Origin: a virus
Taxonomy: Duplodnaviria > Heunggongvirae > Uroviricota > Caudoviricetes
Virus record (IMG/VR): IMGVR_UViG_3300028648_000132
Reading direction: 5' to 3' (one strand)
DNA length: 64,000 nucleotides
Notes under the pieces: generated by a model
Told to the model about the DNA's origin: nothing
The model's input: only the letters and a program-made list of their open reading frames with translations
The model's database searches: none
In this document: positions 1,497-62,645 of the stretch, in pieces
Numbering within the stretch: the stretch's first letter is position 1
Layout: each line of letters starts with the position of its first letter
Program-made: the position numbers and the translations under genes

Positions 1497-4013
1497 TTAT
1501 GCGATGCGGCGGCCGTCGAATGTGGCTATGCCGGATAGCGCTGTGATGCTTCGTGAGACAACGGTTTCCGAGCCGGTTGAGCCGTTGGACCGTATGTCGT
1601 AGTCGACCGCGATGAATCCTGGCTGCACGACATCTCCCGCCACCAGCGGGATTTCGAAGGCGCAACCCGACGGGATAGCGCCGGTGATGCGGGTGCCGTT
1701 CTTGTACACCACCCAGTAGGGCACGGATGTGCCCTTGGCGGTGACCGATCGGTAGGTGGTGTTGATGCGGTAGAGGCCGGTGGTGGTGATTTCGATGCGG
1801 GCTGTGCCCAGGTCGTCGAGGGTGACGTCGGTGGTGTAGTCGTTGAATGTGAAGAAACCGGACGGGAACGCACCGGAAGAATAGGGGCCGTAGGTGACGT
1901 CGGCGGTGCTATCTCGTCTGATGCTCCACGAATTTGACATCGAGAATCCTGCTCCCGCAGAGGTGTAATCGGACATCGCGAACGCGGCGACCCGGTAGGA
2001 GTCGTAGGTGAAAAACGGGCTCGCCCGCTGCACGCTGAACATCGAATACCGGTATGCCGCACCGATGCTGATGGTGTTGCCCGCGTCGGTGGCGGAGAGG
2101 ACCTGTCGGCCGTTGACGCGCACGAAGTAGTTGGTGCCCGCGCAGCGGATCTCGATGCGCGCGCCCTGCTTGACCGCCGAGAGCCCCGTCTGGAGCGTTA
2201 GGGGTGCGCTGAACGACCAGCTGGTACCCGAGCGGGTGAACTTGCCGATGCGGATCTCGCCCTCTTTGGCCAGGCAGTAGGCGCCCTGTGTGCGGCCCGA
2301 GTCGCATCGGATATAGACACCGGAGTAGTAGTTGCCATTTTGGGTGTCGCCCAACACAAATGACGCTGACTGGCCATCGGTGGCGTAGGTGTAGTTCGGG
2401 CTGGCGAAGAAGTACCCGTCGGAGTTGCCGTTCTTGACGCCCGCGTACCCCGAGTCCCCGCGAATAGTCACGTCTCCGGGGTTGGGTCCGGTGGTCCAGT
2501 CTGTCGAGTTCAGTGCGGCGCCGTCGGCGCCGGAGAAGGTGAAGCTGTAGCTGTTGCCGCCGCCGGTGTTCTGCTCGGTTTCCTGCTCCTGCAACGTGGT
2601 TTGCGCCGCGATTGCGCTCTTGAGTGCGTCGCGCGAGAGGCCGAGCAGCGATAGCAGTGATTCCTTGGCCTGGTTGATCTGCTCGCCGATGGTTCCCGTT
2701 GTGCTCGTGCCTGTTCCGTCGGCGCCAGTTTTGACGCCGGTCAGCATGTCGCCGAGGTTGCTGACCAGATCGTTGACCCGGCCCATGTCGAAATTGCCGA
2801 CCACGTCGCCCGCGTTCAGTGTCCCGCCAGCGGTGAGCTTCTGAGTCTTGTTGTTGCTCAGCCCGAACCAGTCCTTGACGGCCTGGATGGTCGAGTTGAT
2901 GGGTGTGACCACAAGCCCGCCGAAGATGTCCCGTATCTGGTTCAGCTGGGCGTTGAGGTCGGGGAGATCGGTGACCTTGGTCTGCGGGAGTAGCGGGATG
3001 TTGCCTAGGCCGAGCAAGCCCAGTATCTCTGCTGCGTCGATCTTGCCGTCAGCAGTGATTGCGGCGAGACGGTTTTGGATGTCGCCGATTTCGGCGTTGA
3101 CCTGACCGGCGACGGTGTCGAAGAACTCCTTGAAGCGGTCCAGTCCGACCTTGTGCGCCAGCTCCTCCAGGGCATTGCCAATGTCGGTGCCGAACTGCTC
3201 CAGCTGGGTGACAAGATCCTGCACGTAGTCCTGCGGGAGCTTCCCGGTCTTCCAGGTATCGGCGTCGTCGAACCACACGGCGCCTGCGGTGACGTCGCCG
3301 GTCACTAGGAGCGTGGTGCGGACTTCGTCGACGCCAGTGTCGGGCACGGTGTAGGTGCCGTGCAGCTCCACCCATCCGCTGCTGTCGGCCGCCGTCGGCT
3401 GGTGCTGGGCAACGACTGTCGACGAAACAGGGTTACCCGCCAGGTACGAGGTGACGATCAGCCGGATGGGGTTGGTGCCAGCACCAGCGGTAAGGCCCTG
3501 CCAGCGGGTGAATACCTCCAGTTCCAGGTGCTGCTTCTTGGCCACCGGTATGGCGTTGGAGTGCAGGTATTTTGCGACCCCTGCCATGACGGCCTTGACC
3601 GATCCCAATGGGCTGGTGCGGCCGATGGTGCCGTCCCACAACCAGTCCGGGTTGTCGACGACCGCGGCGTCGGTGTCGAAGCCGCCGTTGAGTAGCAGGT
3701 TCGGGAACCACTCGCCGATCTGTGACAGGGGGATGAGCGGCAGCAGTCCGGGCTTGATCCACGACAGGACGTTCGCAATGCCCTTCTTCAGCTCGTCCAG
3801 CCACTCGATGATCTCGGGGATGGGGTTGGTGGCTATACCCAGCAGGGAGTCGATGAGCCGTTGGAGTTCCTTCTGGATCATCACCGGCAGCTGCTTGAGG
3901 ACATCGCCGAGGTTGTTGATGGTCTTCTTGAGCGCCGGGTCCTGGGCGAGTTGGTTGGTCGGGTCGTATTCCGTCTTGAAGTTCTGTGGGACCAGATCGA
4001 CTGACCGAGGCAT
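1497..4013 (-). CDS. minor tail protein (838 aa)
   Basis: Start chosen at MPRSVDLVPQNFK (ATG at 4013), which overlaps the TAA of the upstream gene (TAATG). The upstream 68 codons of the track ORF are Arg/His-rich junk. Large beta-rich C-terminus typical of actinophage minor tail proteins. Confidence 0.7.
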   Translation of the reverse strand: MPRSVDLVPQNFKTEYDPTNQLAQDPALKKTINNLGDVLKQLPVMIQKELQRLIDSLLGIATNPIPEIIEWLDELKKGIANVLSWIKPGLLPLIPLSQIGEWFPNLLLNGGFDTDAAVVDNPDWLWDGTIGRTSPLGSVKAVMAGVAKYLHSNAIPVAKKQHLELEVFTRWQGLTAGAGTNPIRLIVTSYLAGNPVSSTVVAQHQPTAADSSGWVELHGTYTVPDTGVDEVRTTLLVTGDVTAGAVWFDDADTWKTGKLPQDYVQDLVTQLEQFGTDIGNALEELAHKVGLDRFKEFFDTVAGQVNAEIGDIQNRLAAITADGKIDAAEILGLLGLGNIPLLPQTKVTDLPDLNAQLNQIRDIFGGLVVTPINSTIQAVKDWFGLSNNKTQKLTAGGTLNAGDVVGNFDMGRVNDLVSNLGDMLTGVKTGADGTGTSTTGTIGEQINQAKESLLSLLGLSRDALKSAIAAQTTLQEQETEQNTGGGNSYSFTFSGADGAALNSTDWTTGPNPGDVTIRGDSGYAGVKNGNSDGYFFASPNYTYATDGQSASFVLGDTQNGNYYSGVYIRCDSGRTQGAYCLAKEGEIRIGKFTRSGTSWSFSAPLTLQTGLSAVKQGARIEIRCAGTNYFVRVNGRQVLSATDAGNTISIGAAYRYSMFSVQRASPFFTYDSYRVAAFAMSDYTSAGAGFSMSNSWSIRRDSTADVTYGPYSSGAFPSGFFTFNDYTTDVTLDDLGTARIEITTTGLYRINTTYRSVTAKGTSVPYWVVYKNGTRITGAIPSGCAFEIPLVAGDVVQPGFIAVDYDIRSNGSTGSETVVSRSITALSGIATFDGRRIA

Positions 4014-6025: not shown

Positions 6026-7860
6026 CAGAAGATGGTTCCTTCGCCAAGGAATTGGGACAGGGTCGTCCAAACGGCCTGCAATGCACGAAGACCCCGCGCT
6101 GCGGGGTCTTCTTTGTCGCTGTCGTCGCCGATCGCCAGTTGCACTGTGACCGGCTCATTTCGGGACCACGTTCGCTTTATGGCGGTGATCTGGTCGACGA
6201 AGATGATGCCGCCCTGCTCGAACCCGGCCCGGTCGCCCAGGCCGATGTCGATGTCTATGGCGTGGGGTCGACCATTGACGACCTTGACCGTAAAGCCCTG
6301 CCAGGCGCGGGTTTTGAAGTGTCCAACGCGCATGGTGACGACGCCAGACAGTGTGTAGGCGGTGCCGCCGCCCTTCTCGAAATGCTCCTGCCAGGCCATG
6401 TCGCCGGTCCAGAGCGCGCGCCGCGGATCGGTGAAGCGCATCCAAGCCAGCAAAGTATTGTCCAGCTGCCCTTGATAGAGGTTGTCCAAACCTTCGGTGC
6501 CTGGCTGCTGGTAGGCGCCTATTGCATAGTTGATCACCTGCGCTAGTTGCGACAGCGCATATCTGATAGCAAATGTCTGGGCTTGGTTAACAATCTGCGG
6601 GCTACGGGAGCCCGTCATCACCGTTTTGACCGGCCCCTTATGTTGTCGCCGCTCTGACTCGATGATCCCGCTGAATTGGCCGTCGTACCAGATGGTTTTC
6701 GGCTTCTCCGGTGCAACGCCCAGCAGCTTCCGGAACACCGGATCGGTCTCGCCATCACCGTCCTCATCGAGGTTGATGAGGGTTTCGGTGATCATGTCGT
6801 CCAACGTGGCGCCGATGAGGTTGATGACACCGTCGGCCGCCGTTCCGGTCGGGCCGGTCACCCCCGACTTGTCCTCGATGGCGAAGACGATGCAGTTGCG
6901 GTGCGGCCGGGTGACATCGTTGACCGCCTCCTCAGCGACGGTGCCCCGCACCAGGTCTACGAGTTCGGTGTGTGGGGAGTCCTTGTCTTCCTTGAGCCAG
7001 GTGTAGGCGCGGAAGTCGCATCCCGCGTCCTTCAACATGTCGTTCATCGCCGCGTGCCAGTCCGTCCATGCCGCGCCGACGACAGAGAGGCGGGACTGGT
7101 CCAGGAGCGGGTTGACGAAGGCGACTTGGAGCGGCCAAGACAGTGGGTCGAGTCCACTGATGCCGCCGTTGAGCCAGCCGAAGGGGTTGAAGACATTGGT
7201 CGGGATGGACAGGAGCGGGAAGAACAGCCGCGCCAGGTTGATGAACATGGACGCGGACAGGATGGTGCGGGTATTGCCTGGTAGCACCCACATTTTCGGC
7301 AGCTGGACCTCGGGAGGAAACACGGGGTTGGCGGCGAAAAGCAGGTTTTTCGCATGCTGCCGGTTGCTGATGGCCTCCAGCTCCAGCGTGTGGACGCCGG
7401 ACGAGTCACGCTTGGCGTTGATGCCGGTGACCTTCCCGCCCCACCGGGTACGCCAGGTGGCCTGTGTGGGGATGGGGTCGACGACTAGGTGCAGGTCCTC
7501 GTGGATTTTGGTCTGTTGGAGGATGAAGTCTGTGAGCCAGTTGTCGTACCGCAGTACAACATTGGCCTGACCGGAGTCCGAGTGCATCTCCTCGACGGAC
7601 GCCAGCCGCTCGCCCGCAATCTGGGCGATAGGGTCCATGTTCTTGTCGAAGAGGCGCAGCATGGGTCGCTGGCGTGCCGCGCCTTCGATGGCGTCGCGTC
7701 GGCCGCGCAAGTACTTGTAGGCCGACATGGGGTCGGTGGCCGGGTCCGGCTTCGTGGGCCGATTCAACGTGTCTACGAGGGCGTCGTTGAGCCACCGGGT
7801 GAACTCCAGTGGCGCTGTTACTAATCCGTGCTGTACGCCATCTAGGAGTGCGCTAGTCAC
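6025..7860 (-). CDS. minor tail protein (611 aa)
   Basis: GTG start at 7860 immediately follows the upstream stop and has an AAGAGG RBS. Large protein in the tail block downstream of the tape measure. Confidence 0.7.
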   Translation of the reverse strand: MTSALLDGVQHGLVTAPLEFTRWLNDALVDTLNRPTKPDPATDPMSAYKYLRGRRDAIEGAARQRPMLRLFDKNMDPIAQIAGERLASVEEMHSDSGQANVVLRYDNWLTDFILQQTKIHEDLHLVVDPIPTQATWRTRWGGKVTGINAKRDSSGVHTLELEAISNRQHAKNLLFAANPVFPPEVQLPKMWVLPGNTRTILSASMFINLARLFFPLLSIPTNVFNPFGWLNGGISGLDPLSWPLQVAFVNPLLDQSRLSVVGAAWTDWHAAMNDMLKDAGCDFRAYTWLKEDKDSPHTELVDLVRGTVAEEAVNDVTRPHRNCIVFAIEDKSGVTGPTGTAADGVINLIGATLDDMITETLINLDEDGDGETDPVFRKLLGVAPEKPKTIWYDGQFSGIIESERRQHKGPVKTVMTGSRSPQIVNQAQTFAIRYALSQLAQVINYAIGAYQQPGTEGLDNLYQGQLDNTLLAWMRFTDPRRALWTGDMAWQEHFEKGGGTAYTLSGVVTMRVGHFKTRAWQGFTVKVVNGRPHAIDIDIGLGDRAGFEQGGIIFVDQITAIKRTWSRNEPVTVQLAIGDDSDKEDPAARGLRALQAVWTTLSQFLGEGTIF

Positions 7861-28896: not shown

Positions 28897-28938
28897 GCGG
28901 ATAAACGAAACGCCCCCGGGGTGAGGTCCGGGGGCGTT
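28897..28938 (-). terminator. strong intrinsic terminator (11-bp stem) in a 415-bp intergenic region
   Basis: AACGCCCCCGG-GGTGAGGT-CCGGGGGCGTT, followed on the minus strand by a UUCGUUUAU tract. Confidence 0.5.
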
Positions 28939-29018
28939 CAAGGCACAGCGGTGCCAACGACATATGTATAACACGTGATACGGGCGCAGGCCCGTACGCA
29001 GGTCAGACGGTGTGTCGG

Positions 29019-33074: not shown

Positions 33075-33463
33075 GGTGCGACCACGGTGATGATGGGCTT
33101 GCCGGGCATCATGTCGGCTAGCTCGGTCAACGGGTTGATGCGCTTGTGCGCGTCCCCGCCCAACGGTGTGACGGCCAGTTCGGCCCCGTGCACCTTTTCC
33201 AGGTTGGCCAGGCAGGTCATGTAGGCGTCTGCATCTGGCAGTTCGGGTACGTCGACGTCGGCCAGTTGGGGGTGTTGCGCCAGCAGTGCTGGCTTGCATT
33301 CGCCTGCGGCGCGGGGCAATTGGTGGGTGAAGAGGTTGTCGCCGGTCATGTAGTTGAGGAGTTGGTAGATATCGCCGATGTCAGCTACCAGGAACACGTC
33401 TGTGGTGACGGTCAGGATGGCGCCCAGGCCGAAGGTGCGCGGGGTGGGTGCGGTCACGGTCAT
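33071..33463 (-). CDS. hypothetical protein
   Basis: 130-aa ORF with no extension artefact. Confidence 0.5.
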   Translation of the reverse strand: MTVTAPTPRTFGLGAILTVTTDVFLVADIGDIYQLLNYMTGDNLFTHQLPRAAGECKPALLAQHPQLADVDVPELPDADAYMTCLANLEKVHGAELAVTPLGGDAHKRINPLTELADMMPGKPIITVVAP

Positions 33464-33793
33464 CTAGTCTTCTCCGGCGGCGTTGGGGGCCTTGATGTTT
33501 GGCCAGTAGATGACGGTGCGGCGGCCCATGCTGTCGGTGTAGGTGGGCAGCGACCAAATACGGTCGACGAGATCTGCGACGTCATCGTCGGCGCCTGCCA
33601 GGACGTAGGCCAGCTCTGCGGTGACCGCGGGGGTGAGGTTGGAGTCGTCCAGGACGACGGCCAGGCATTCCTTGCCGTACATGCCTCGCCCGCTGTAGTC
33701 CGTTCGGACAGTGGGTAATTCGCCGTCGCCAGCGTAGTTGTTGAGGCTGTCCTCGAAGGAGGTCAGCTGCTCGGCGGTCAGGGTCTCGTTCAT
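33464..33793 (-). CDS. hypothetical protein
   Basis: 109 aa. Its ATG lies 11 nt downstream of an AT-rich GTATAG-N4-CTATAC palindrome. Confidence 0.5.
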   Translation of the reverse strand: MNETLTAEQLTSFEDSLNNYAGDGELPTVRTDYSGRGMYGKECLAVVLDDSNLTPAVTAELAYVLAGADDDVADLVDRIWSLPTYTDSMGRRTVIYWPNIKAPNAAGED

Positions 33794-33803
33794 GAGATAA
33801 ACT

Positions 33804-33819
33804 GTATAGTTAGCTATAC
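33804..33819. promoter_or_regulatory. 16-bp palindrome GTATAGTTAGCTATAC (operator and/or -10 element) immediately 5' of the gene 33464-33793
   Basis: AT-rich dyad in a 68% GC genome. It shares the core AGCTATAC with three other sites (36836, 37257, 37305). Confidence 0.4.
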
Positions 33820-33832
33820 GTTATGTCGAGCG

Positions 33833-33946
33833 TTAGTCGGCGCGGATAACCGCGATGATCACGGCCGTCATGCAGAGCACCGCGACGACAAGGACGACCG
33901 CGGCGGGCCAGCCGTTCAGGCTCTGGAGTGGGGTGTTGAAATCCAT
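33833..33946 (-). CDS. small membrane peptide (37 aa)
   Basis: MDFNTPLQSLNGWPAAVVLVVAVLCMTAVIIAVIRAD, a single TM helix. The upstream part of the track ORF is artefact. Confidence 0.35.
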   Translation of the reverse strand: MDFNTPLQSLNGWPAAVVLVVAVLCMTAVIIAVIRAD

Positions 33947-33963
33947 TGCGGCGTCTGCCTTCC

Positions 33964-34194
33964 TTACCTGGTGACGTGTTGGGCGGTTGGGGTGCGGCCG
34001 TCGAGAATTTTCTGGATCAGGCCCGGGCTGCACGTCACCGCTGCGGCCAGCGTGGCGTAGGTCCACTTCTCTCGTTCGGTGGTCCACAGCTCGCGAACTA
34101 GCCGGTCCCGTTCGTACCGGTGTTGTTCGCCGACGCGGGAGGCATCACGCTGCAACCGGTGATGCTCCCGCGCCTGCTGTGCCCTTGGGTCCAC
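33964..34194 (-). CDS. small putative DNA-binding protein
   Basis: 76 aa with an HTH-like stretch (KWTYATLAAAVTCSPGLIQKIL), immediately downstream of the Ro60-like gene. Confidence 0.4.
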   Translation of the reverse strand: MDPRAQQAREHHRLQRDASRVGEQHRYERDRLVRELWTTEREKWTYATLAAAVTCSPGLIQKILDGRTPTAQHVTR

Positions 34195-34200
34195 GCGTTC

Positions 34201-35916
34201 CTACAGTCCGGCCGAGAAGTCCGAGATCAACTGCGGGACAGCCGAGTCGAAACCAGACACGTCGAGCTGGCCGGGGTCGGCGGGGTCGGCGATGGTGAAG
34301 CGGGTTGCCGTCATGCCGACAACGATCAGGCGGGCGTTGATGCCCATCTTGTTGCGGTAGTCGCGGAGCGCCTGGTGCGGGTGGACGTCGCCGAACCAGG
34401 TCTCGTTGTCGGTGATGACCACGAACGTGTCGAACTCGCGCTTGGACTGCTGCGCCCACAGCATCGGGAGTGCGCAGTCTGTGGCGCCGAAGCTGAGTCC
34501 GGCGGTGTACCGGCACACGTCGTCGAGGCGACGGCGCGGTGTGATGTCCAGCGGGGTGAGTAGGTGCTGGGACCGGTAGCCGTAGCCCGAGCGCGCGGCC
34601 TGTCGGCCGTCGGTGAAGCCGACGACTTCGTGGTCCGGCTCGACGTTGGCGGTGACGAGCGCGAGCGCGGCTGCGGCCTCGCGGCATGTCAGCGGCATAC
34701 CCGAGATCGCGGCGCCCATGGAGCCGGACACGTCCAGCGCCAGCAGGGTGCGCATGCCCGACGGCTCCACCGCGCCGTAGGCGTTGTAGAACGCAGCGTC
34801 CAGGGCATCCACGACCTTGCGTTCCGGCGTCCAGGTGGAGTCGCCGCGCGCCGAACGCCCGGACGCATAGGTGCGCTGTGCGATCAGGACGTTGACCGGG
34901 TGGACGCGGCCCTTTCGTAGACGGTCGGCGTCCTGGAGCTGAGCAACGACACGATCCAGATATTCACCATGCAGGACCCCATGCCGGGTCAGCCGCGGCA
35001 GTTGGCGCATCAAAGCCGTCTGCGGCAGACCATGCTCAATCAGCGCTTCCCACACAGCCGTGAAGTTGAGCGCGACGTCTGGCAACGCTTCCCAGGGAAG
35101 GCCGTTGCCACGTCGAATGATGCTCACCCATTCCTTGGGTTGGGTGGCGCGCTGGGCGTCCTCGAAGTCCTCGATGATCGCCAGGGGGTGGTCGACCGCC
35201 AGATCGACATTCGGCAGCTTGGGCCGGGAGGCGTTGCGCTCCCCTGCCTTCAACTGCTCGGCGGTGAGGGGCTGAACCTTGCCGATGTAGTCGTTCAGGC
35301 CCTTGCCGACTGCCCAGTTGAAGGCGAGGCGGCGGGCCGGGTCCGCCGTGGCGGGGCCGGACAGGCGTAGGAGGTCCCGGTGCATCCAGCCTTCGCGCTG
35401 CCGGTACTTGACCAGCTGGTAGGCGAGACGGTCGACGGGCTTGTCGAGGTACCAGCCGCCGACGGCGCGCTGCATGGCGCGGCCCCACCCGCGGAACTGC
35501 TCCATGTACTTGACGAACGTGTACAGCTGGGTGCCGGTGCGGGCGACCGTGGGCAGGGCTGCCGCGGCGGCGCGGCGGCCGTCGACGTCCTCTGCTGCTG
35601 CGGCGATAGCGAGGGCGAACAGGGCCGGGTTCTGTCGGGGCGCGCGTCCGGCCACCGATACCTCGACGATGTGCTGGACGAGGTGGACCGGGTCGGCCGC
35701 TGCTGCGCGGAACACCACCGCCGCGGTGTCCTTAGTCAGGTCGGCGGCGTTGGTGTAGTAGGTGCCGCCGTCGGTGCCGAGGGTGAGGAAGCGGTGCAGC
35801 AGCGTCTCGTCGTCGATGGTGAAGGTGTAGCCACCGGCGGAGTTCTTCACCTGCCGGGGGTCCGCCTGCTGCGACTGCGGCGTCTTACGGGTTCCGATAG
35901 TGGTGAGAACGTCCAC
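34201..35916 (-). CDS. rsr: Ro60/Rsr-like ribonucleoprotein (TROVE domain plus C-terminal vWA domain)
   Basis: 571 aa. C-terminal vWA domain with the MIDAS motif LALDVSGSMGAA, and a long helical TROVE-like N-terminal region. GTG start with an AAGGAGA RBS. Immediately adjacent to tRNA-like ncRNA modules, the arrangement described for rsr/Y RNA loci. Confidence 0.8.
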   Translation of the reverse strand: MDVLTTIGTRKTPQSQQADPRQVKNSAGGYTFTIDDETLLHRFLTLGTDGGTYYTNAADLTKDTAAVVFRAAAADPVHLVQHIVEVSVAGRAPRQNPALFALAIAAAAEDVDGRRAAAAALPTVARTGTQLYTFVKYMEQFRGWGRAMQRAVGGWYLDKPVDRLAYQLVKYRQREGWMHRDLLRLSGPATADPARRLAFNWAVGKGLNDYIGKVQPLTAEQLKAGERNASRPKLPNVDLAVDHPLAIIEDFEDAQRATQPKEWVSIIRRGNGLPWEALPDVALNFTAVWEALIEHGLPQTALMRQLPRLTRHGVLHGEYLDRVVAQLQDADRLRKGRVHPVNVLIAQRTYASGRSARGDSTWTPERKVVDALDAAFYNAYGAVEPSGMRTLLALDVSGSMGAAISGMPLTCREAAAALALVTANVEPDHEVVGFTDGRQAARSGYGYRSQHLLTPLDITPRRRLDDVCRYTAGLSFGATDCALPMLWAQQSKREFDTFVVITDNETWFGDVHPHQALRDYRNKMGINARLIVVGMTATRFTIADPADPGQLDVSGFDSAVPQLISDFSAGL

Positions 35917-35947
35917 CGTGCATCTCCTTGGTAGGGGTGCGGGCGGC

Positions 35948-36030
35948 GCGAACGTGTGTGGGGCTGCCGGGGTTTGTCATCCATGTGAGGGAGGGGTTAA
36001 CCGACTGCGATCCTGCTCGTGCCACCCGTG
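35948..36030 (-). ncRNA. degenerate Y-RNA-like stem (module 0), without a tRNA-like domain
   Basis: Carries the conserved 5'-strand motif variant AGGATCGCAGTCGGTTAAC and a 3'-strand CACACACGUUCG that pair over a short internal loop. Lies between rsr and module 1. Confidence 0.3.
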
Positions 36031-36048
36031 AGGGGCTATTGGGCGGGT

Positions 36049-36168
36049 GATGTGAACGTGTGTGTGCTGACCGGGATTTCGCTTTTACACCCGCACTAGG
36101 TGCGGGCGACAGGGATTGAACCTGCATTACCAATTGAGTGATAACCGACCGAGCGTCCTGTTCACATC
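36049..36168 (-). ncRNA. Y-RNA-like (YrlA-like) ncRNA module 1 with a tRNA-like domain
   Basis: 9-bp closing helix GAUGUGAAC / GUUCACAUC. Conserved motif GUGAACAGGACGCUCGGUCGGUUAUC, a D-loop-like CAAUUGGUAAUG, T-arm GCAGG-UUCAAUC-CCUGU, and a closed acceptor-like hairpin CCCGCAC-CUA-GUGCGGG. Confidence 0.5.
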
Positions 36169-36217
36169 GGGTTGTCTGTCGTGCGCGTAGGTGGTGTGGG
36201 CGTGTGGGGTGCCGACC

Positions 36218-36332
36218 GGCGTATGTGGACAATTGCCTCTACCAATTGGGCTACACCCCGCGAGCGAGGTGGTGGGGCTCGAACCCACACCTGACTGTTT
36301 TGGTAACCGACCTGCGTCCTGTCCACACCGCC
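36218..36332 (-). ncRNA. Y-RNA-like ncRNA module 2 (permuted tRNA-like)
   Basis: Conserved motif, then T-arm GUGGG-UUCGAGC-CCCAC, an acceptor-like hairpin CACCUCG/CGGGGUG closed by a short loop, then UA plus a D-arm-like GCCCAAUUGGUAGAGGC. Closing helix GGCGGUGUGGAC / GUCCACAUACGCC. Confidence 0.5.
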
Positions 36333-36363
36333 TGCGCGCGTGCGTCTGCTGGTGTCTTGAGGT

Positions 36364-36497
36364 GGTGTGAGCGTGTGGGTGTCGTCCGGGTTTTAGCGCT
36401 CTAGGCCGCTGAGCTACAACCACTTTCGTGGCTGGCGGGATTCGAACCCGCGTCTCTCTCATGAAAGGAGATAACCGAACGAAGTCCTGTTCACACC
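36364..36497 (-). ncRNA. Y-RNA-like ncRNA module 3 (permuted tRNA-like; best preserved)
   Basis: Conserved motif, an anticodon-like hairpin UCUCC-UUUCAUG-AGAGA, T-arm GCGGG-UUCGAAU-CCCGC, acceptor 3' strand CAGCCAC, a GAAA loop, acceptor 5' strand GUGGUUG, then UA and a canonical D-arm GCUC-AGCGGCCUA-GAGC. Closing helix GGUGUGAAC / GCUCACACC. Confidence 0.55.
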
Positions 36498-36510
36498 GTG
36501 CTACGTATGG

Positions 36511-36665
36511 AGTTGTGTTGGGTGATGGGGCGAACGTGTGTGTGCTGACCGGGTTTAAGCGCTCTACCAACTGAGCTACAGCCGGGGGTTGGCTGGCGGG
36601 ACTCGAACCCGCGACCTCTCCATTAGCAAGTGGTAACCGATCTGCGTCCTGCTCGCACCATCTGG
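36511..36665 (-). ncRNA. Y-RNA-like ncRNA module 4 (permuted tRNA-like)
   Basis: Conserved motif, T-arm GCGGG-UUCGAGU-CCCGC, an acceptor-like hairpin CAGCC-AACCCCC-GGCUG, then UA and a canonical D-arm GCUC-AGUUGGUA-GAGC. Closing helix GAUGGUGCGAGC / GUUCGCCCCAUC. Confidence 0.5.
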
Positions 36666-36687
36666 TGTTTATGTTGTGGTTTGGGGG

Positions 36688-36808
36688 CGACGTGAACGTG
36701 GTTGGCGCTGGACGGGTTTGGCTCCATTTCCCCGCTTGGCTCGGGGCGTTCTAACTTGAACTACGGGGCGTGGCCCCGAGATAACCGACCTGCATCCTGT
36801 TCACGTCG
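36688..36808 (-). ncRNA. Y-RNA-like ncRNA module 5 (divergent internal hairpins)
   Basis: Perfect 10-bp closing helix CGACGUGAAC / GUUCACGUCG. Carries the conserved motif, but internally has GC hairpins (CUCGGGGC...GCCCCGAG) instead of a clear T/D pair. Confidence 0.4.
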
Positions 36809-36835
36809 TCCGTTGTTTTGTTGTCTGAAAACGAA

Positions 36836-36853
36836 GCTATACCGCGGTATAGC
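36836..36853. promoter_or_regulatory. perfect 18-bp palindrome GCTATACCGCGGTATAGC between the secreted-protein gene and the ncRNA array
   Basis: A hairpin/operator candidate containing the AGCTATAC core. It is followed on the minus strand by a U-rich stretch (UAUAGCUUCGUUUUCAG), so it could act as a terminator for the upstream gene and/or as a promoter/operator for the array. Confidence 0.4.
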
Positions 36854-36907
36854 GGTGCGGCAACAGGATTCCGGGGTGGCTGTATAGCCGCTCGGTAGCC
36901 GCGACCA

Positions 36908-37246
36908 TCACTTTCCGGCGCCAGCGCCTCCGCTCGCCGAGGACCCACCGCTACCTGCGGACCCGCTACCAGCGCTGTTGCCTCCACTTTCACCCGCGCC
37001 TGGACTTGCCGGACCTGTAGGTGGATGGTGTTGGCCCTCAGGGCATTCCGGGTCCTCTGGGGGTTTGTATCCGCCGCCACCTGCTGGGGTGAAGGGTGCG
37101 GGTCGGGCACCCAGGCATGTCTTGGCGTCTGTCGCGGCGTACAGGCAACGCTCTGGGAATGCGGAGGCCGTTGTAGTTGGGAGTGCCGTGAGGGCGGCGA
37201 TGGCGGTAGCAATGAAGGCAATGCGTTTTGCACTAAGGCTTTTCAT
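36908..37246 (-). CDS. small secreted protein (signal peptide, Gly/Ser/Pro-rich)
   Basis: Start at MKSLSAKRIAFIATAIAALTALPTTTASA, a predicted signal peptide. 112 aa. The upstream 111 codons of the track ORF are artefact. Sits next to a divergent promoter region. Confidence 0.55.
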   Translation of the reverse strand: MKSLSAKRIAFIATAIAALTALPTTTASAFPERCLYAATDAKTCLGARPAPFTPAGGGGYKPPEDPECPEGQHHPPTGPASPGAGESGGNSAGSGSAGSGGSSASGGAGAGK

Positions 37247-37256
37247 GACTCGAAAC

Positions 37257-37320
37257 GTATATAGAGCTATACACATAAGCAAGGCTGTTACGGCTTGTTC
37301 TTTCGTATAGTGAGCTATAC
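37257..37320. promoter_or_regulatory. divergent promoter/operator region with two GTATA(T/G)-N4-CTATAC palindromes
   Basis: GTATATAGAGCTATAC at 37257-37272 and GTATAGTGAGCTATAC at 37305-37320, with the shared 10-mer GAGCTATACA. Both lie between the minus-strand secreted-protein gene and the plus-strand island. TATAGT/TATAGC are -10-like. Confidence 0.4.
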
Positions 37321-37330
37321 ATTCTGAGTC

Positions 37331-37582
37331 ATGGCAAGAGTGACACTCACAGCGAAAGCGCGGATGCGCGCCAACAAGCGCCGCGTCATGTCGGCACTCC
37401 GCAACGCCGGTATGCCGCTCCTGGTCGACAACCGCGACGGCATCTGGCGCCTCTATTTCATCGGCACCGACGACACCGGTGTCGAGCTGGAGCTGATCCT
37501 GGTCCCACACGCCACCCAGGACTGGACCTGGGTATGTATCCACGCCATGCCCACCAAGTACCGGAAAGGAGGGGCACAATGA
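37331..37582 (+). CDS. putative BrnT-like (DUF4258-like) toxin
   Basis: 83 aa. N-terminal LTAKARMRANKRRVMSALRNAG resembles the HAxeRMxeRgIs opening of DUF4258/BrnT toxins. First gene of the plus-strand island; its stop overlaps the next ATG (ATGA). Confidence 0.4.
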   Translation: MARVTLTAKARMRANKRRVMSALRNAGMPLLVDNRDGIWRLYFIGTDDTGVELELILVPHATQDWTWVCIHAMPTKYRKGGAQ

Positions 37583-37773
37583 CCCTCATGAGCAGTCACA
37601 GCGAAGCCGACCTCAAGCGCCTCACCTTCGGCGATGACCTGGTCGTCGACGACATCGACCTCGACAAGGACGAGTTCCTTGTCGGCGACGGCGTCCGGCT
37701 GACCAACGACGCGGCAGACAAGATGGCCGATGAGACTTTGGCCGAGGTCCGACGCCAGAACATCCGACCGTGA
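37579..37773 (+). CDS. putative BrnA-like (DUF4415-like) antitoxin
   Basis: 64 aa from MTLMSSHSEADLKRLTFGDDLVVDDIDLDKDEF. The DDIDLDKDEF segment resembles BrnA N-terminal motifs. Translationally coupled to the upstream gene. Confidence 0.35.
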   Translation: MTLMSSHSEADLKRLTFGDDLVVDDIDLDKDEFLVGDGVRLTNDAADKMADETLAEVRRQNIRP

Positions 37774-39031: not shown

Positions 39032-39372
39032 GCTGTTCCGCCACTTTGGGGTATCTCGATGGCCGACGCCACCATGTACTTGACCTCTGCCATGTGCCGC
39101 TCGAACCGTTCGCGCTGGGCTTTCTCGTAGGGGCGTTCTACGCGTTGGGTTGGCCAGTCGGGCTCCATGATGCGGCGTTGGGCCTCGGCTTCGGCGGCCT
39201 CCATGACGCCGGTGATCCACCTGCCGTCGTTGATCAATGGCCGGGCGTCGGCGGGCAGCGTCTCCACCGTGTCGCGGCCATTGGTGGACGGTTCGCATTT
39301 GTAGAAGCCGCCCCAGTTGTCGAGCTGCCAGAAGATCTGGCCTGACGGGGTGGCCCATAGTTCCCAGATCAT
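39028..39372 (-). CDS. hypothetical protein
   Basis: 114-aa ORF. Confidence 0.45.
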   Translation of the reverse strand: MIWELWATPSGQIFWQLDNWGGFYKCEPSTNGRDTVETLPADARPLINDGRWITGVMEAAEAEAQRRIMEPDWPTQRVERPYEKAQRERFERHMAEVKYMVASAIEIPQSGGTA

Positions 39373-39794
39373 GCGCTGGTGCCTCCCTGTCGGCGGACGC
39401 GTTGACGGGTCAGGTAGGACAGCACGTCGGCGACGTTGTATTCCGGTTTGCCTTCCTGCCCTGCCCGTTCGGTTATGCCGTCACCCAGTCCTTTTCGGCG
39501 CCTGTATGCCCAGTTTCGGACCTGGTGCTCGGTGAGTTGGACGATGTGGGCGAGGTGGATGACGAGGTCGGCGGCCGACAACCACGCCTCCTGGTCGACA
39601 GGGGCGACAGATGGCACCGCCCAGTAGACGCCGAGGTCTTGCCAGTACCTGTCACGTTCTATGAGGGCCTGCATTGGGTCGATGATGCGTCCGGCCGCGA
39701 CGTCTTCAAGGAGCTGGCGGTAGGACAGGGCGACACGTTTCGCCTTGTCCTCGCGGCTGTCGCCGGTCCACTTCCAAACCTTCTGATCAGTCAT
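39369..39794 (-). CDS. HTH DNA-binding protein (MerR/Xis-like)
   Basis: 141 aa with an HTH stretch LAHIVQLTEHQVRNWAYRRR. Confidence 0.45.
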   Translation of the reverse strand: MTDQKVWKWTGDSREDKAKRVALSYRQLLEDVAAGRIIDPMQALIERDRYWQDLGVYWAVPSVAPVDQEAWLSAADLVIHLAHIVQLTEHQVRNWAYRRRKGLGDGITERAGQEGKPEYNVADVLSYLTRQRVRRQGGTSA

Positions 39795-61950: not shown

Positions 61951-62180
61951 GACGCGGCCTGTGCGTAGTCGTTGAGGTCGCGGGTGGCCTGGCGGGCCTG
62001 GGCGTAGAGGCGGACGGCCTGGTGGTCGAGCAGGTAGGTCTTGCCGACGAGTCGGGCGGGGATACGGCCGGAAACGGCGAGCGCCTGGAGAGTCCGTTTG
62101 GAGACGTTGTATGTAGTCGCGGCCTTGGTGACGGTGATCTCGTCTGGCTGCTCGGGTATCTCGGCGGTGGGTGCGGCCAT
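61947..62180 (-). CDS. Cro/excisionase-like HTH protein (first gene of the leftward early operon)
   Basis: Xis/MerR-type HTH TTYNVSKRTLQALAVSGRIPARLVGKTYLL. Start taken at the ATG at 62180; the track start at 62216 is a TTG. Divergent from the repressor gene across a 162-bp operator region. Confidence 0.55.
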   Translation of the reverse strand: MAAPTAEIPEQPDEITVTKAATTYNVSKRTLQALAVSGRIPARLVGKTYLLDHQAVRLYAQARQATRDLNDYAQAAS

Positions 62181-62342
62181 ACGCCCATCTTGCGCATATT
62201 CGCATAGTGCGCGCAAGCGCCTGCATTGAAGTTTTCGCAGTTAGGGAACTTATTGGCCTTTAGCAGCAATCAGCCGGTGTTTGCGGATTGGGCTATTTCG
62301 TACCACCTTGCGAGTGTGCGCGTACGCGCATAGCATGCGCAT
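62181..62342. promoter_or_regulatory. divergent immunity control region with operator-like dyads
   Basis: Two related dyads: CGCATAGTGCGCGC (~62201-62215) and CGCATAGCATGCGC (~62326-62340). Also a perfect 14-bp palindrome TGCGCGTACGCGCA at 62317-62330 and recurring GCGCATA heptamers, one of which overlaps the repressor start codon. Confidence 0.45.
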
Positions 62343-62645
62343 ATGACCGTTGCATACGAAACCGGGACTATCCCCCCAATGCGTCTGCGATACCGCCTAC
62401 AGATCGCACGGGAAGAAGCCCAACTAGATCAAAGGCAACTGGCCGACATGATGGGCGTCGGCCGGTCGGTAATTGGCAATTGCGAAAAGGGTCGGACCGT
62501 CCCTAAAAAGATCGTCCTCAACGCCTGGGCATTGGCCTGTGGAGTGCCAGTAAGTTGGCTAGCCGAGGGCGAAGGTGAGCAGCCGCCGGAGGGCGACGGG
62601 CCGTCTGTGGTGCGCCCGAAGGGATTCGAACCCCTAACCTTCTGA
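62343..62645 (+). CDS. immunity repressor (XRE-family HTH), prophage form with its C-terminus encoded across attR inside host tRNA-Arg
   Basis: 100 aa with the HTH LDQRQLADMMGVGRSVIGNCEKGRTV. Transcribed divergently from the cro-like gene. The last ~12 codons (VVRPKGFEPLTF*) are read from the tRNA-Arg gene. Confidence 0.6.
   Translation: MTVAYETGTIPPMRLRYRLQIAREEAQLDQRQLADMMGVGRSVIGNCEKGRTVPKKIVLNAWALACGVPVSWLAEGEGEQPPEGDGPSVVRPKGFEPLTF

Follow-up and report, generated by a model that had tools for sequence, protein, structure and literature searches.

The analysed DNA (64,000 nucleotides, hereafter the window) is a Cluster MabK prophage of Mycobacterium abscessus, ~95% identical to prophiGD43A-5; its computed GC content is 65.0%, not ~68% as given in the initial annotation. 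The segment considered here holds a Ro-like protein gene, a Y-RNA-like array, genes for a small helix-turn-helix (HTH) protein and a secreted protein, a toxin-antitoxin operon, and four short palindromes, A to D (Table 1). The gene at 33464..33793 heads a run of minus-strand genes, and the 37-aa gene, the last of the Ro unit, ends 4 nt before the -35 element of promoter A. The Rfam YrlA matches in the array (E = 6e-8, 7e-4 and 9e-4) are below the gathering score, and there is one match to the tRNA model. The secreted-protein gene is unannotated in the GenBank relatives; its start region is conserved in all of them. The BrnT-like toxin starts, in the annotation of the relatives, at a GTG 9 nt further in.

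Table 1. Coordinates of the palindromes, putative promoters and genes in the window
Feature	Position	Strand	Details
phrog_14658 gene, 109 aa	33464..33793	-	Downstream of promoter A; prophiGD43A-5 gene 55
Promoter A (putative)	33801..33829	-	-35 TCGACA 33824-33829, 17-nt spacer, -10 TACAGT 33801-33806, 7 nt, ATG 33793
Palindrome A, GTATAGTTAGCTATAC	33804..33819		Perfect half-sites
37-aa gene, prophiGD43A-5 gene 54	33833..33946	-	Annotation transferred from relative and ORF list
Small HTH protein, 76 aa	33964..34194	-	Long helix 3-39, helix-turn-helix 46-64
Ro-like RNA-binding protein, TROVE and vWA	34201..35916	-	Annotation of relatives; Pfam on homologous contigs
Y-RNA-like / tRNA-like array	35950..36810 (approximate)	-	Rfam YrlA, tRNA model
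Promoter B (putative), Y-RNA/Ro unit	36834..36863	-	-35 TTGCCG 36858-36863, 18-nt spacer, -10 TAGCTT 36834-36839
Palindrome B, GCTATACCGCGGTATAGC	36835..36852		Perfect 18-mer, swapped half-sites CTATAC-CGCG-GTATAG
Secreted protein, 112 aa	36908..37246	-	Signal peptide, Gly/Ser-rich tail (translation)
Promoter C (putative)	37254..37282	-	-35 TTGCTT 37277-37282, 17-nt spacer, -10 TACGTT 37254-37259, 7 nt, ATG 37246
Palindrome C, GTATATAGAGCTATAC	37257..37272		1 mismatch; GTATAGCTCTATATAC in promoter orientation
Promoter D (putative)	37295..37323	+	-35 TTGTTC 37295-37300, 17-nt spacer, -10 TACATT 37318-37323, 7 nt, ATG 37331
Palindrome D, GTATAGTGAGCTATAC	37305..37320		Perfect half-sites
Toxin-antitoxin operon	37331..37773	+	BrnT-like toxin 37331-37582, antitoxin 37579-37773

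The 8-mer AGCTATAC occurs four times in the 64 kb, on the plus strand only (33812, 36835, 37265 and 37313), against a mean of 0.25 copies in shuffled sequence, and none of 100 shuffles had four or more. The initial annotation had reported this four-fold recurrence, each copy within a palindrome, with coordinates and sequences that were all correct. Its view that the four palindromes are equivalent holds for three of them: those at 33804, 37257 and 37305 match GTATAG-N4-CTATAC with zero, one and zero mismatches, respectively, and are the only matches in the window at up to two mismatches (0.28 expected). The fourth, at 36835-36852, is the single match to the swapped arrangement CTATAC-N4-GTATAG at up to one mismatch (position 36837; 0.01 expected), and what it has in common with the others is limited to the CGCG centre, the pair of TATA cores and the 10-bp register. 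As a unit the common 8-mer is partly incidental, because its position relative to the gene differs between sites (promoter-proximal for brnT; distal, as GTATAGCT, at the other two sites) and the central 4 nt of the dyad are not conserved among relatives. The supposed weaker relative at 28966 has three mismatches and is at chance level (8 matches vs 5.06 expected; 13 of 100 shuffles reach 8); lying between a gene end and a terminator and lacking promoter geometry, it was rejected as a regulon member. The palindromes are, as had been proposed, distinct from the immunity operators: the immunity region (62180-62345) contains no copy at up to three mismatches and has repeats of other kinds (TGCGCGTACGCGCA, GCGCAT-AGC-ATGCGC and CTTGCGC-N15-GCGCAAG).

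The surroundings of the palindromes look like promoters. A -35 element (TTGnnn or TCGACA) is followed after 4-5 nt by a 16-bp dyad, GTATAG-N4-nTATAC, whose last 3 nt form, together with NNT, a TANNNT -10 element. Sites A, C and D have an identical register of 17-nt spacer, TACNNT, 7 nt and ATG; no Shine-Dalgarno sequence is present (at the ATG at 33793, none within 10 nt upstream), and on this basis leaderless mRNAs are predicted for brnT, gene 33464-33793 and the secreted-protein gene. In mycobacteria the TANNNT -10 element is centred 7-12 bp upstream of the transcription start (PMC3898074), in agreement with this register, and a consensus promoter scan independently called site A as TCGACA-17-TACAGT. 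Earlier the half-sites had been read as -10 hexamers; the overlap is there, but TACAGT, TACGTT and TACATT fit better than TATAGT/TATAGC because they give the 17-nt spacers and 7 nt to the ATG. The gap between palindrome A and gene 33464-33793 is 10 nt, not 11 nt as first stated, and is the same at the other two protein-gene sites. Putative promoter B, with a predicted start near 36826, is in the common register.

MabK relatives have 7-8 such promoters per genome, 3 or 4 of them beyond the left edge of the window. Sites E, F and G are found in prophiGD43A-5 and prophiT37-1 near the polymorphic-toxin/integrase end, and some relatives have an eighth, H; all four are intergenic with a -35 in register, and F and G are located 35-45 nt upstream of genes that do have a Shine-Dalgarno sequence (GGGAAGG and AGGAGGA), which is consistent with the leaderless reading of the closer sites. 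The site classes are unrelated in sequence except in the -35, dyad and -10, thus they do not derive from recent duplication. Across ~12 MabK genomes, variable columns number 0/48 in the left and 2/48 in the right half-site (2/96 together) as against 14/32 in the linker, 13/32 in the centre and 29/56 in the discriminator (56/120 together; Fisher p = 3e-15), a contrast resting on few substitutions, since the genomes are close kin (~94-95% identical where measured, in prophiGD43A-5 and prophiT37-1) and the loci were mostly fetched by motif-based scans. When orthologues were fetched through an anchor in the coding sequence and not through the motif, none had lost the dyad. At site A, 9 distinct orthologous sequences have the same half-sites but differ in centre and flanks; the -35 TTG and the -10 of promoter C are kept in orthologues, promoter D is conserved, and all MabK relatives share an identical palindrome B. 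What is directly shown is thus that the sites are non-random, that their geometry is promoter-like and that their half-sites are selectively conserved. Invariant half-sites with a free centre and flanks are the pattern of a protein footprint and would fit a dedicated regulator. The left half-site lies at about -28 to -23, a stretch in which RNA polymerase is not known to make base-specific contacts; its invariance points to another protein.

We propose, with a probability of roughly 0.6, that a family of sigma-A-type promoters carries the 16-base palindromes as built-in operators for a putative dimeric repressor. With 10 bp between their centres, the half-sites face the same side of the helix, as would suit a dimeric DNA-binding protein, and a bound dimer would cover the spacer and the -10 and exclude RNA polymerase, for which reason repression is its most likely action; repression and activation cannot be told apart from sequence. 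In this way 7-8 accessory-gene promoters per genome would be repressed independently of the immunity repressor; the transcription starts, the repression and the existence of the binder are all inferred. A shared operator would bring together the toxin-antitoxin pair, the secreted protein, the Ro/Y-RNA module and other accessory genes. Such co-control had been suggested initially; it is partly supported, by the regulatory sites at accessory-gene promoters, but is uncertain for the Y-RNA/Ro locus. Site B, in front of the Y-RNA/Ro/HTH unit, has swapped half-sites in the common register and a terminator-like hairpin; because it differs symmetrically from the others at four positions, it may not be a target of the same protein.

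It could be argued that the promoters form a family with no binder of their own and that the AT-rich dyad is kept for the polymerase (bendability, melting, an unusual extended -10) or for a particular sigma factor. The dyad does overlap the -10 and fill the spacer of complete-looking sigma-A promoters, and AT-rich spacers can affect promoter strength. We consider this unlikely: spacer flexibility would not predict invariant G/C positions in the left half together with a free centre, no role in recognition by the polymerase is known for dyad symmetry at a 10-bp spacing, and the predicted immunity-region promoters of the same phage lack the motif. Just as unlikely, in our opinion, is a binder supplied by the host, either a regulator of M. 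abscessus or a nucleoid protein (Lsr2, for example), with the accessory genes following a host signal and the operator model unchanged. Lsr2 is attracted to AT-rich islands in GC-rich mycobacterial DNA, and no phage protein could be assigned as the binder; Lsr2, however, is not known to have a strict dyad-specific site. A search of 185,579 species genomes for the motif with leaderless geometry gave four matches, all in unrelated bacteria and none in a mycobacterial representative genome, and ~2.5 kb of host flank in four loci contained no copy. By chance alone ~0.06 copies would be expected in 5 Mb of M. abscessus chromosome. In IMG/VR, MabK is the only mycobacterial-prophage DNA with the motif, the other high-GC matches being isolated single copies in metagenomic contigs.

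We give very little credence to the palindromes being hairpins that act as terminators, processing sites or cruciforms at gene boundaries. All four could form hairpins, but those of A, C and D are AT-rich, reach only -5 to -5.6 kcal/mol, have no T tracts, lie upstream of genes and would not be transcribed if the promoters are real. For site B alone a dual or terminator role is a doubtful but more serious possibility: it has a 7-bp stem (-9.2 kcal/mol) followed by TTCGTTTTC on the minus strand, was flagged as terminator-like by the scan, and could terminate the transcript of the secreted-protein gene just upstream. Sparky (CTGTAC-TGCG-GTACAG) and BearBQ (TGTAA-TGCG-TTACA) have homologous palindromes upstream of their first Y RNA, in both cases without a T tract, although the symmetric A-T to G-C change in Sparky would preserve the stem. 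Least credible of all is that the sites are short conserved recombination points at which accessory cassettes are exchanged between phages. They do flank variable modules: L152 has a different gene with its own site H in place of the small gene after the Ro-linked HTH, and the polymorphic-toxin cassette beside site E is swapped between prophiGD43A-5 and prophiT37-1 (PMC9934374). However, a 16-bp sequence offers little length for homologous exchange, this reading does not account for the constant spacing to -35, -10 and start codons, and the motif was not found in cassette-donor clusters, e.g. in prophiGD36-2. More likely, the flanking of modules is a by-product of morons with their own promoters.

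The operator reading agrees with the dedicated regulator proposed initially as far as the non-random promoter sites at accessory genes and the footprint pattern in ~12 prophages go, but for the binding protein it offers candidates only. We rank gp109 of prophiGD43A-5 first. This 73-aa MabK-specific protein ('long helix + HTH') is encoded just past the left edge of the window, its own predicted leaderless promoter carries site E, and, like the motif, it is confined to MabK prophages (50,697 phage records, 5.8 billion proteins). It has two allelic forms with different putative recognition helices (VKRDSIYKIV and VTRDGIYKIC), and the sites are the same in both, which would count against it. Second is the Ro-linked HTH protein (33964-34194), which has a weak Pfam HTH_31 match and an AF2 model with pLDDT 83. 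Its gene invariably comes immediately downstream of a phage Ro gene (MabK, Sparky, BearBQ/Cashline, L152, L153). Three or four phage lineages combine it with a palindrome that precedes the first Y RNA, and we regard it as a candidate for palindrome B, the Y-RNA site, at the least. Searches against known regulator families gave no significant match for either protein. In third place we put a host regulator or some other phage protein. Of the two small HTH proteins put forward initially, 33964-34194 is thus retained, but nothing ties 39369-39794 to the sites. Homologues of the TetR-like gp116 are present in prophages without the motif.

Elements of this kind, ordinary switches, are already known; the MabK instance is undescribed for this phage group. 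It is useful to compare it with the SAS/ESAS of Cluster K mycobacteriophages, which are asymmetric, include the ribosome-binding region and are thought to act in translation. Both are short conserved motifs placed upstream of several start codons at a short, constant distance, but the MabK motif is a dyad, has no Shine-Dalgarno sequence with it and coincides with promoter elements of genes predicted to be leaderless. TetR/tetO-type or toxin-antitoxin autoregulatory operators have a palindrome that occupies the spacer or the -10 of a small operon's promoter. Site D within the brnT promoter resembles these, but the MabK dyad is common to six or seven unrelated promoters, and no such dyad accompanies the BrnT homologue of Gordonia phage Eyre. 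The stoperators of Cluster A mycobacteriophages (L5 gp71) and MabJ prophages (PMC9934374) are likewise one short conserved site repeated intergenically across a mycobacteriophage genome, with a phage-wide regulon. They are, however, 13-14 bp long, asymmetric, orientation-dependent, present in 14-30 copies and bound by the immunity repressor, most of them inside transcription units where they block elongation, whereas the MabK sites are palindromic, fewer and each in register within a promoter. CI/Cro-type operators of temperate phages (lambda OR/OL; the 12-bp palindromic operators of BPs gp33, with integration-dependent immunity) are similar in being dyad sites of 12-17 bp that overlap the -35/-10 in several copies. 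There a small HTH dimer binds and occludes the promoter, which for the MabK sites is a proposal only; unlike CI/Cro operators, these lie outside the immunity switch, at 7-8 scattered accessory promoters, and the binder need not be the immunity repressor. A GTATAG-N4-CTATAC dyad is also present in the CI(HTH_3)/Cro divergent region of L172, an unrelated low-GC phage contig.

The recurrence of the 8-mer AGCTATAC reported in the initial annotation was confirmed: the word occurs four times in the window against 0.25 expected, a number reached by no shuffle. With up to two mismatches, the 16-bp dyad GTATAG-N4-CTATAC (half-sites GTATAG and CTATAC; GTATAGTGCGCTATAC is one such 16-mer) has three copies, at 33804, 37257 and 37305 (0.28 expected), and the swapped form CTATAC-N4-GTATAG has one, at 36837 (0.01 expected). 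These counts and the shuffles exclude chance as the origin of the sites. The setting is GC-rich as claimed, with 65% GC measured rather than ~68%. The four copies had been described as one palindrome; this holds for sites A, C and D, which are alike, but the 18-mer at 36835-36852 (site B) has its half-sites in reversed order. Neither is the 8-mer the conserved core it was taken for: its AGCT falls outside that core, and the central four bases vary in relatives (CGCA, CAGA, CGAA, TGCG, CGCG and CTCT are among the variants). The "weaker relative" at 28966 had to be removed from the family, it has three mismatches, a stringency at which the window contains 8 matches against 5.06 expected, and it sits between a gene end and a strong terminator, without promoter features. 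This sequence, GTATAACACGTGATAC (28966-28981), is a near-palindrome around CACGTG at a gene end, it is kept in prophiGD43A-5, and next to it on the minus strand comes a strong terminator (28905-28940), a GC-rich hairpin with a T tract. The interpretation given with the palindrome, a dedicated regulator of the accessory genes and the Ro/Y-RNA locus distinct from the immunity operators, is as a whole partly supported.

A 5-kb query from this region matched prophiGD43A-5 (MW584167, 95% identity) and prophiT37-1 (94%) over 94% of its length. Both are Cluster MabK prophages of Mycobacterium abscessus integrated at a tRNA gene (attB-1), and their attP lies within the repressor gene, an arrangement of integration-dependent immunity. 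The window has the opposite orientation to the GenBank records, it corresponds to roughly the first 62.6 kb of the record together with 1.3 kb of host DNA; past its left edge lie the lysis genes, a polymorphic-toxin cassette and the integrase end of the prophage. In the Y-RNA-like array the Rfam YrlA matches have E-values from 6e-8 to 9e-4, all below the gathering score. ARAGORN found no tRNA in the array, and the tRNA-Thr annotated there in prophiGD43A-5 is probably a Y-RNA tRNA-like domain. The secreted-protein ORF is kept in all MabK relatives and is unannotated in MW584167 and OQ417969; its product had no match in Pfam, PHROGs or NCBIfam.

Features of the accessory region, dyad sites in the window and in MabK relatives, and Ro-linked HTH genes
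Feature	Coordinates	Strand	Sequence, context or source
Gene 55, then two small genes, then Ro-like protein	33.4-37.8 kb		annotation of relatives
BrnT-like toxin and antitoxin	33.4-37.8 kb	opposite orientation	annotation of relatives
"tRNA" inside the Y-RNA-like array	33.4-37.8 kb		annotation of relatives
Y-RNA-like array, about five units with tRNA-like domains	35950-36810	-	
Secreted-protein ORF, 112 aa, clear signal peptide MKSLSAKRIAFIATAIAALTALPTTTASA, Gly/Ser-rich tail	36908-37246	-	translation
Site A	33804-33819	-	TCGACA-taac-GTATAGCTAACTATAC-AGT-ttatctc-ATG; gene 33464-33793
Site B	36835-36852		TTGCCG-caccg-CTATACCGCGGTATAG, -10 = TAGCTT; register as at A, C and D
Site C	37257-37272	-	TTGCTT-atgt-GTATAGCTCTATATAC-GTT-tcgagtc-ATG; ORF 36908-37246
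Site D	37305-37320	+	TTGTTC-tttc-GTATAGTGAGCTATAC-ATT-ctgagtc-ATG; brnT, 37331
Site E			upstream of gene 109 (73-aa protein); predicted leaderless: TATACT, 6 nt, ATG
Site F			upstream of a plus-strand ORF annotated in prophiT37-1 as gene 107; opposite strand annotated in prophiGD43A-5
Site G			upstream of gene 115
Site H (eighth, some relatives)			before another small gene, which follows the Ro-linked HTH gene
Ro-linked HTH gene, window	33964-34194	-	
Ro-linked HTH gene, L140	5001-5210		
Ro-linked HTH gene, L141	4992-5207		
Ro-linked HTH gene, contig L152	6001-6228		
Ro-linked HTH gene, contig L153	6001-6270		

When each site is read toward its adjacent gene, the dyad occupies the promoter spacer, and the -10 takes its first 3 nt from it. 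At sites A, C and D the palindrome's last three bases and the following NNT form the TANNNT hexamer (TACAGT, TACGTT, TACATT) expected of a mycobacterial leaderless sigma-A promoter, the ATG comes exactly 7 nt after the hexamer, and the 10 nt preceding the ATG contain no Shine-Dalgarno sequence. The -35-like hexamers fall in the expected range of 16-18 nt upstream of the -10, with a spacer of 17 nt for TCGACA, TTGCTT and TTGTTC, and of 18 nt for TTGCCG at site B. Mycobacterial promoters are marked above all by a TANNNT -10 whose centre lies 7-12 bp upstream of the start point, and leaderless mRNAs are common in these bacteria (PMC3898074). Because of this geometry and its agreement with the published pattern, we infer that sites A, C and D are sigma-A-type promoters of predicted leaderless mRNAs. 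A stricter scan for 9 of 12 consensus positions independently called site A alone, as TCGACA-17-TACAGT. In the GenBank relatives brnT begins at a GTG (37340), 9 nt into the ORF. The likelier start is the ATG at 37331, whose distance to the palindrome, exactly 10 nt, is that of both other predicted leaderless sites. Site B keeps the same register and lies ~20 nt upstream of the first Y-RNA stem, and it is thus plausibly the promoter of the Y-RNA/Ro/HTH unit.

To see which positions are constrained, the orthologous copies were aligned per site class (2-10 distinct sequences per class) and variable columns were counted by segment. None of the 48 columns of the left half-site was variable, and only two of the 48 of the right half-site, both at its first base; the corresponding numbers were 12/48 for the -35 hexamer, 14/32 for the 4-nt linker, 13/32 for the central 4 nt and 29/56 for the 7-nt discriminator. 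Taken together, 2/96 half-site columns were variable vs. 56/120 in linker, centre and discriminator (Fisher p = 3e-15). As the motif itself had served to collect the sites, retrieval was repeated from a 36-nt anchor located downstream, in coding or transcribed sequence, and no orthologue without the dyad was found. Between site classes the sequence is unrelated outside the -35, the dyad and the -10, which argues that the shared motif does not stem from recent duplication. At all sites the half-sites are inverted, with centres 10 bp apart, about one helical turn. Inverted half-sites, conservation of the half-sites and overlap with the core promoter are the features of a dyad-symmetric operator of an HTH repressor, and the invariance of the left half-site, together with the dyad symmetry and the 10-bp spacing, is the trace expected of a dimeric DNA-binding protein.

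It could be argued that the conserved bases are promoter features only, with no protein bound to them. We find this improbable: the left half-site is located at about -28 to -23, where RNA polymerase is not known to read bases, and base-specific conservation of a dyad there is left unexplained. That the palindromes act as hairpins or terminators is highly unlikely as a general explanation. An intrinsic terminator has a stable G+C-rich stem followed by a T tract and lies downstream of a gene, whereas the hairpins at A, C and D are weak (-5 to -5.6 kcal/mol), their stems are AT-rich, there is no T tract, and they lie upstream of genes. The idea is viable at site B only, whose sequence can also fold into a hairpin with a 7-bp stem (-9.2 kcal/mol) and TTCGTTTTC behind it, a short way past the end of the secreted-protein gene; a scan flagged it as terminator-like, it is marginal as an intrinsic terminator, and both a promoter and a terminator role are possible for it. 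Cassette swaps do happen next to the sites, as would be expected of recombination junctions, but 16 bp in strict register with promoter elements fit better with morons that bring along regulated promoters of their own, and we see hardly any chance that recombination accounts for the motif.

The reading that we prefer, with a probability of about 0.6, is that the dyad is a shared operator in predicted leaderless sigma-A promoters, probably repressive, for which there are candidate binders only. A protein dimer on the dyad would cover the spacer, and with it the upstream half of the -10, in a sigma-A promoter that is complete in other respects, and would repress a MabK-specific regulon by promoter occlusion; repression is proposed because the dyad is in the classic position of a repressor site. 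In the window the regulon would include the toxin-antitoxin pair, the secreted protein and gene 33464-33793 with the genes behind it, probably also the Y-RNA/Ro unit, and beyond the window gene 109, the gene-107-type ORF and gene 115. Published text describes prophiGD43A-5 as mostly silent, with expression of its toxin-immunity cassette.

The sites beyond the window came from a scan of the complete prophiGD43A-5 record, which contains the four orthologous sites and three more (E, F and G) outside the part covered by the window; these three are also present in prophiT37-1, and every site is intergenic. Sites F and G are 35-45 nt upstream of their genes, which have Shine-Dalgarno sequences (GGGAAGG and AGGAGGA), and this fits sites marking transcription starts. 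The plus-strand ORF behind one palindrome promoter (MW584167 ~73258-73575; 33258-33575 (+) in the record piece L004) has a Shine-Dalgarno sequence and a strong terminator downstream. Gene 114 of prophiGD43A-5 is annotated on the minus strand, whereas prophiT37-1 has the plus-strand gene (107) annotated; gene 114 is a probable wrong-strand call. Among the IMG/VR matches listed for pattern scans, the motif was present in mycobacterial-prophage DNA only in ~10 MabK-like prophages of isolate genomes; the remaining matches listed were single copies in unrelated or low-GC contigs, which we regard as chance hits. The B-type pattern was found only in MabK and Sparky. Scanning 185,579 species, one genome each, with the leaderless geometry as pattern gave four matches, all in unrelated bacteria and read as chance.

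The claim that the dyad is distinct from the immunity operators was borne out. No copy with up to three mismatches is present in the immunity region (62180-62345), the repeats there being CTTGCGC-N15-GCGCAAG, TGCGCGTACGCGCA and GCGCAT-AGC-ATGCGC, and the dyad is thus absent from the divergent repressor/early-lytic promoters, where immunity operators have their copies. Since the immunity region has other repeats and no dyad, the dyad circuit appears to be separate from immunity. The repressor ORF (62343-62642) extends into the tRNA at attL, an arrangement of integration-dependent immunity, and its ATG is 6 nt after a TAGCAT, so the repressor mRNA may be leaderless too. One word of the immunity region, TGCGCGCA, recurs after site E in the gp109 promoter of the relatives, which hints at possible dual control of that promoter.

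Which protein binds the dyad? Ten proteins encoded near the sites were searched against Pfam, PHROGs and NCBIfam, which yielded no more than weak hints of HTH domains, and two candidates deserve consideration. The first, gp109 (the product of gene 109 in prophiGD43A-5), is 73 aa long, it is predicted to form a long helix (3-45) and a helix-turn-helix, and it weakly matches PHROG 686 ("HTH DNA binding protein"). It is confined to MabK prophages (50,697 phage records and 5.8 billion proteins searched), a distribution that mirrors that of the motif, and its own predicted leaderless promoter bears site E, which would permit autoregulation. It must be noted, however, that two allelic forms of gp109 differ in the putative recognition helix, yet their sites are the same. 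The second candidate, the 76-aa protein encoded at 33964-34194, has the same architecture (long helix 3-39, HTH 46-64, pLDDT 83). BLASTP and hhalign detected no homology between the two. AF2 models of both had no significant Foldseek match in the PDB.

HTH proteins of the 33964-34194 type are always encoded directly downstream of Ro, and this in phages of different clusters: in MabK, in Mycobacterium phages Sparky and Farewell, and in Gordonia phages BearBQ and Cashline. Two assembled contigs show the same order. A homologue of site B precedes the first Y RNA in Sparky (CTGTAC-TGCG-GTACAG, a single copy in 50 kb), in BearBQ (TGTAA-TGCG-TTACA) and, in degenerate form, in L153 (CATTAC-TGAG-GTATAG). 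Recognition helix and palindrome arm seem to change together in three or four lineages (LIQKI/GTATAG, LIAKI/GTACAG, LVAAI/TTACAG), a suggestive correspondence. The comparison suggests that a phage Ro module of three parts is conserved: a palindrome promoter, Y RNAs with Ro, and an HTH gene. The 33964-34194 protein is a reasonable candidate for site B. It is a weaker one for the other sites, because GTATAG-N4-CTATAC was not found in the other lineages with a Ro-linked HTH (50 kb of Sparky, the 10-kb BearBQ locus, 12 kb of L153).

Other candidates were rejected. The TetR-like gp116 is an unlikely binder: homologues with 42-59% identity adjoin the integrase in many M. abscessus prophage clusters, prophiGD36-2 has a homologue and no copy of the motif, and the T37-1 orthologue is just 59% identical while the sites are identical. 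Autoregulation of BrnA type by the antitoxin is unlikely too, as a dyad of this kind is absent from the brnT locus in Gordonia phage Eyre; the 64-aa antitoxin has no clear DNA-binding domain. When the immunity repressor was compared with the CI of L172, an unrelated IMG/VR metagenomic phage contig of 41% GC, the likeness was of a generic Xre type and the recognition helices differed. Less probably, the binder is a host regulator.

Mechanistically the MabK dyad is close to operators of the CI/Cro type, as in temperate phages, and to those of the TetR type. It is a further example of an established class of element and no new kind of mechanism. L172 has GTATAG-N4-CTATAC twice (3153-3214 and 6033-6100), with extra half-sites, between its HTH_3 CI-like and Cro-like genes. 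This use of the dyad as a switch operator in a CI/Cro divergent region is an analogy only, and apparently convergent. The immunity operators of the prophage itself are other repeats. The "stoperators" of Cluster A/MabJ (PMC9934374) are asymmetric, have one orientation and lie mostly inside transcription units, whereas every MabK site is a palindrome inside a promoter. The palindrome is unmentioned in the two papers of the Hatfull laboratory on these prophages, and a full-text search for the 16-mers returned nothing relevant.

Toxins, toxin-antitoxin systems and secreted proteins of M. abscessus prophages are thought to shape virulence and phage resistance, and the regulation of this cargo is largely unknown. 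The main value of the finding is that one operator common to 7-8 promoters would define a directly testable regulon, and that the predicted leaderless starts lead to several corrections of annotation: a secreted protein that had no annotation, a gene probably called on the wrong strand and the brnT start. There is also a hint that phage Ro/Y-RNA modules bring their own regulator. A wider reading, which we hold only tentatively and consider somewhat doubtful, is that MabK prophages have a second circuit, independent of immunity, in which a single small "long helix + HTH" protein of no known family, either gp109 or the Ro-linked HTH, controls essentially all lysogenic-conversion cargo at once through leaderless promoters, and that phage Ro/Y-RNA modules are generally mobile three-part units. 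If true, the cargo would comprise BrnTA, the secreted protein, the Ro/Y-RNA module and the genes flanking the polymorphic-toxin cassette, and the mobile module would consist of an operator-bearing promoter, the Y RNAs with Ro, and its own HTH regulator.

An isolated half-site-like word, GGCTGTATAGCC (36880-36891), lies 17 nt beyond the stop codon of the secreted-protein gene and is invariant in all MabK relatives.
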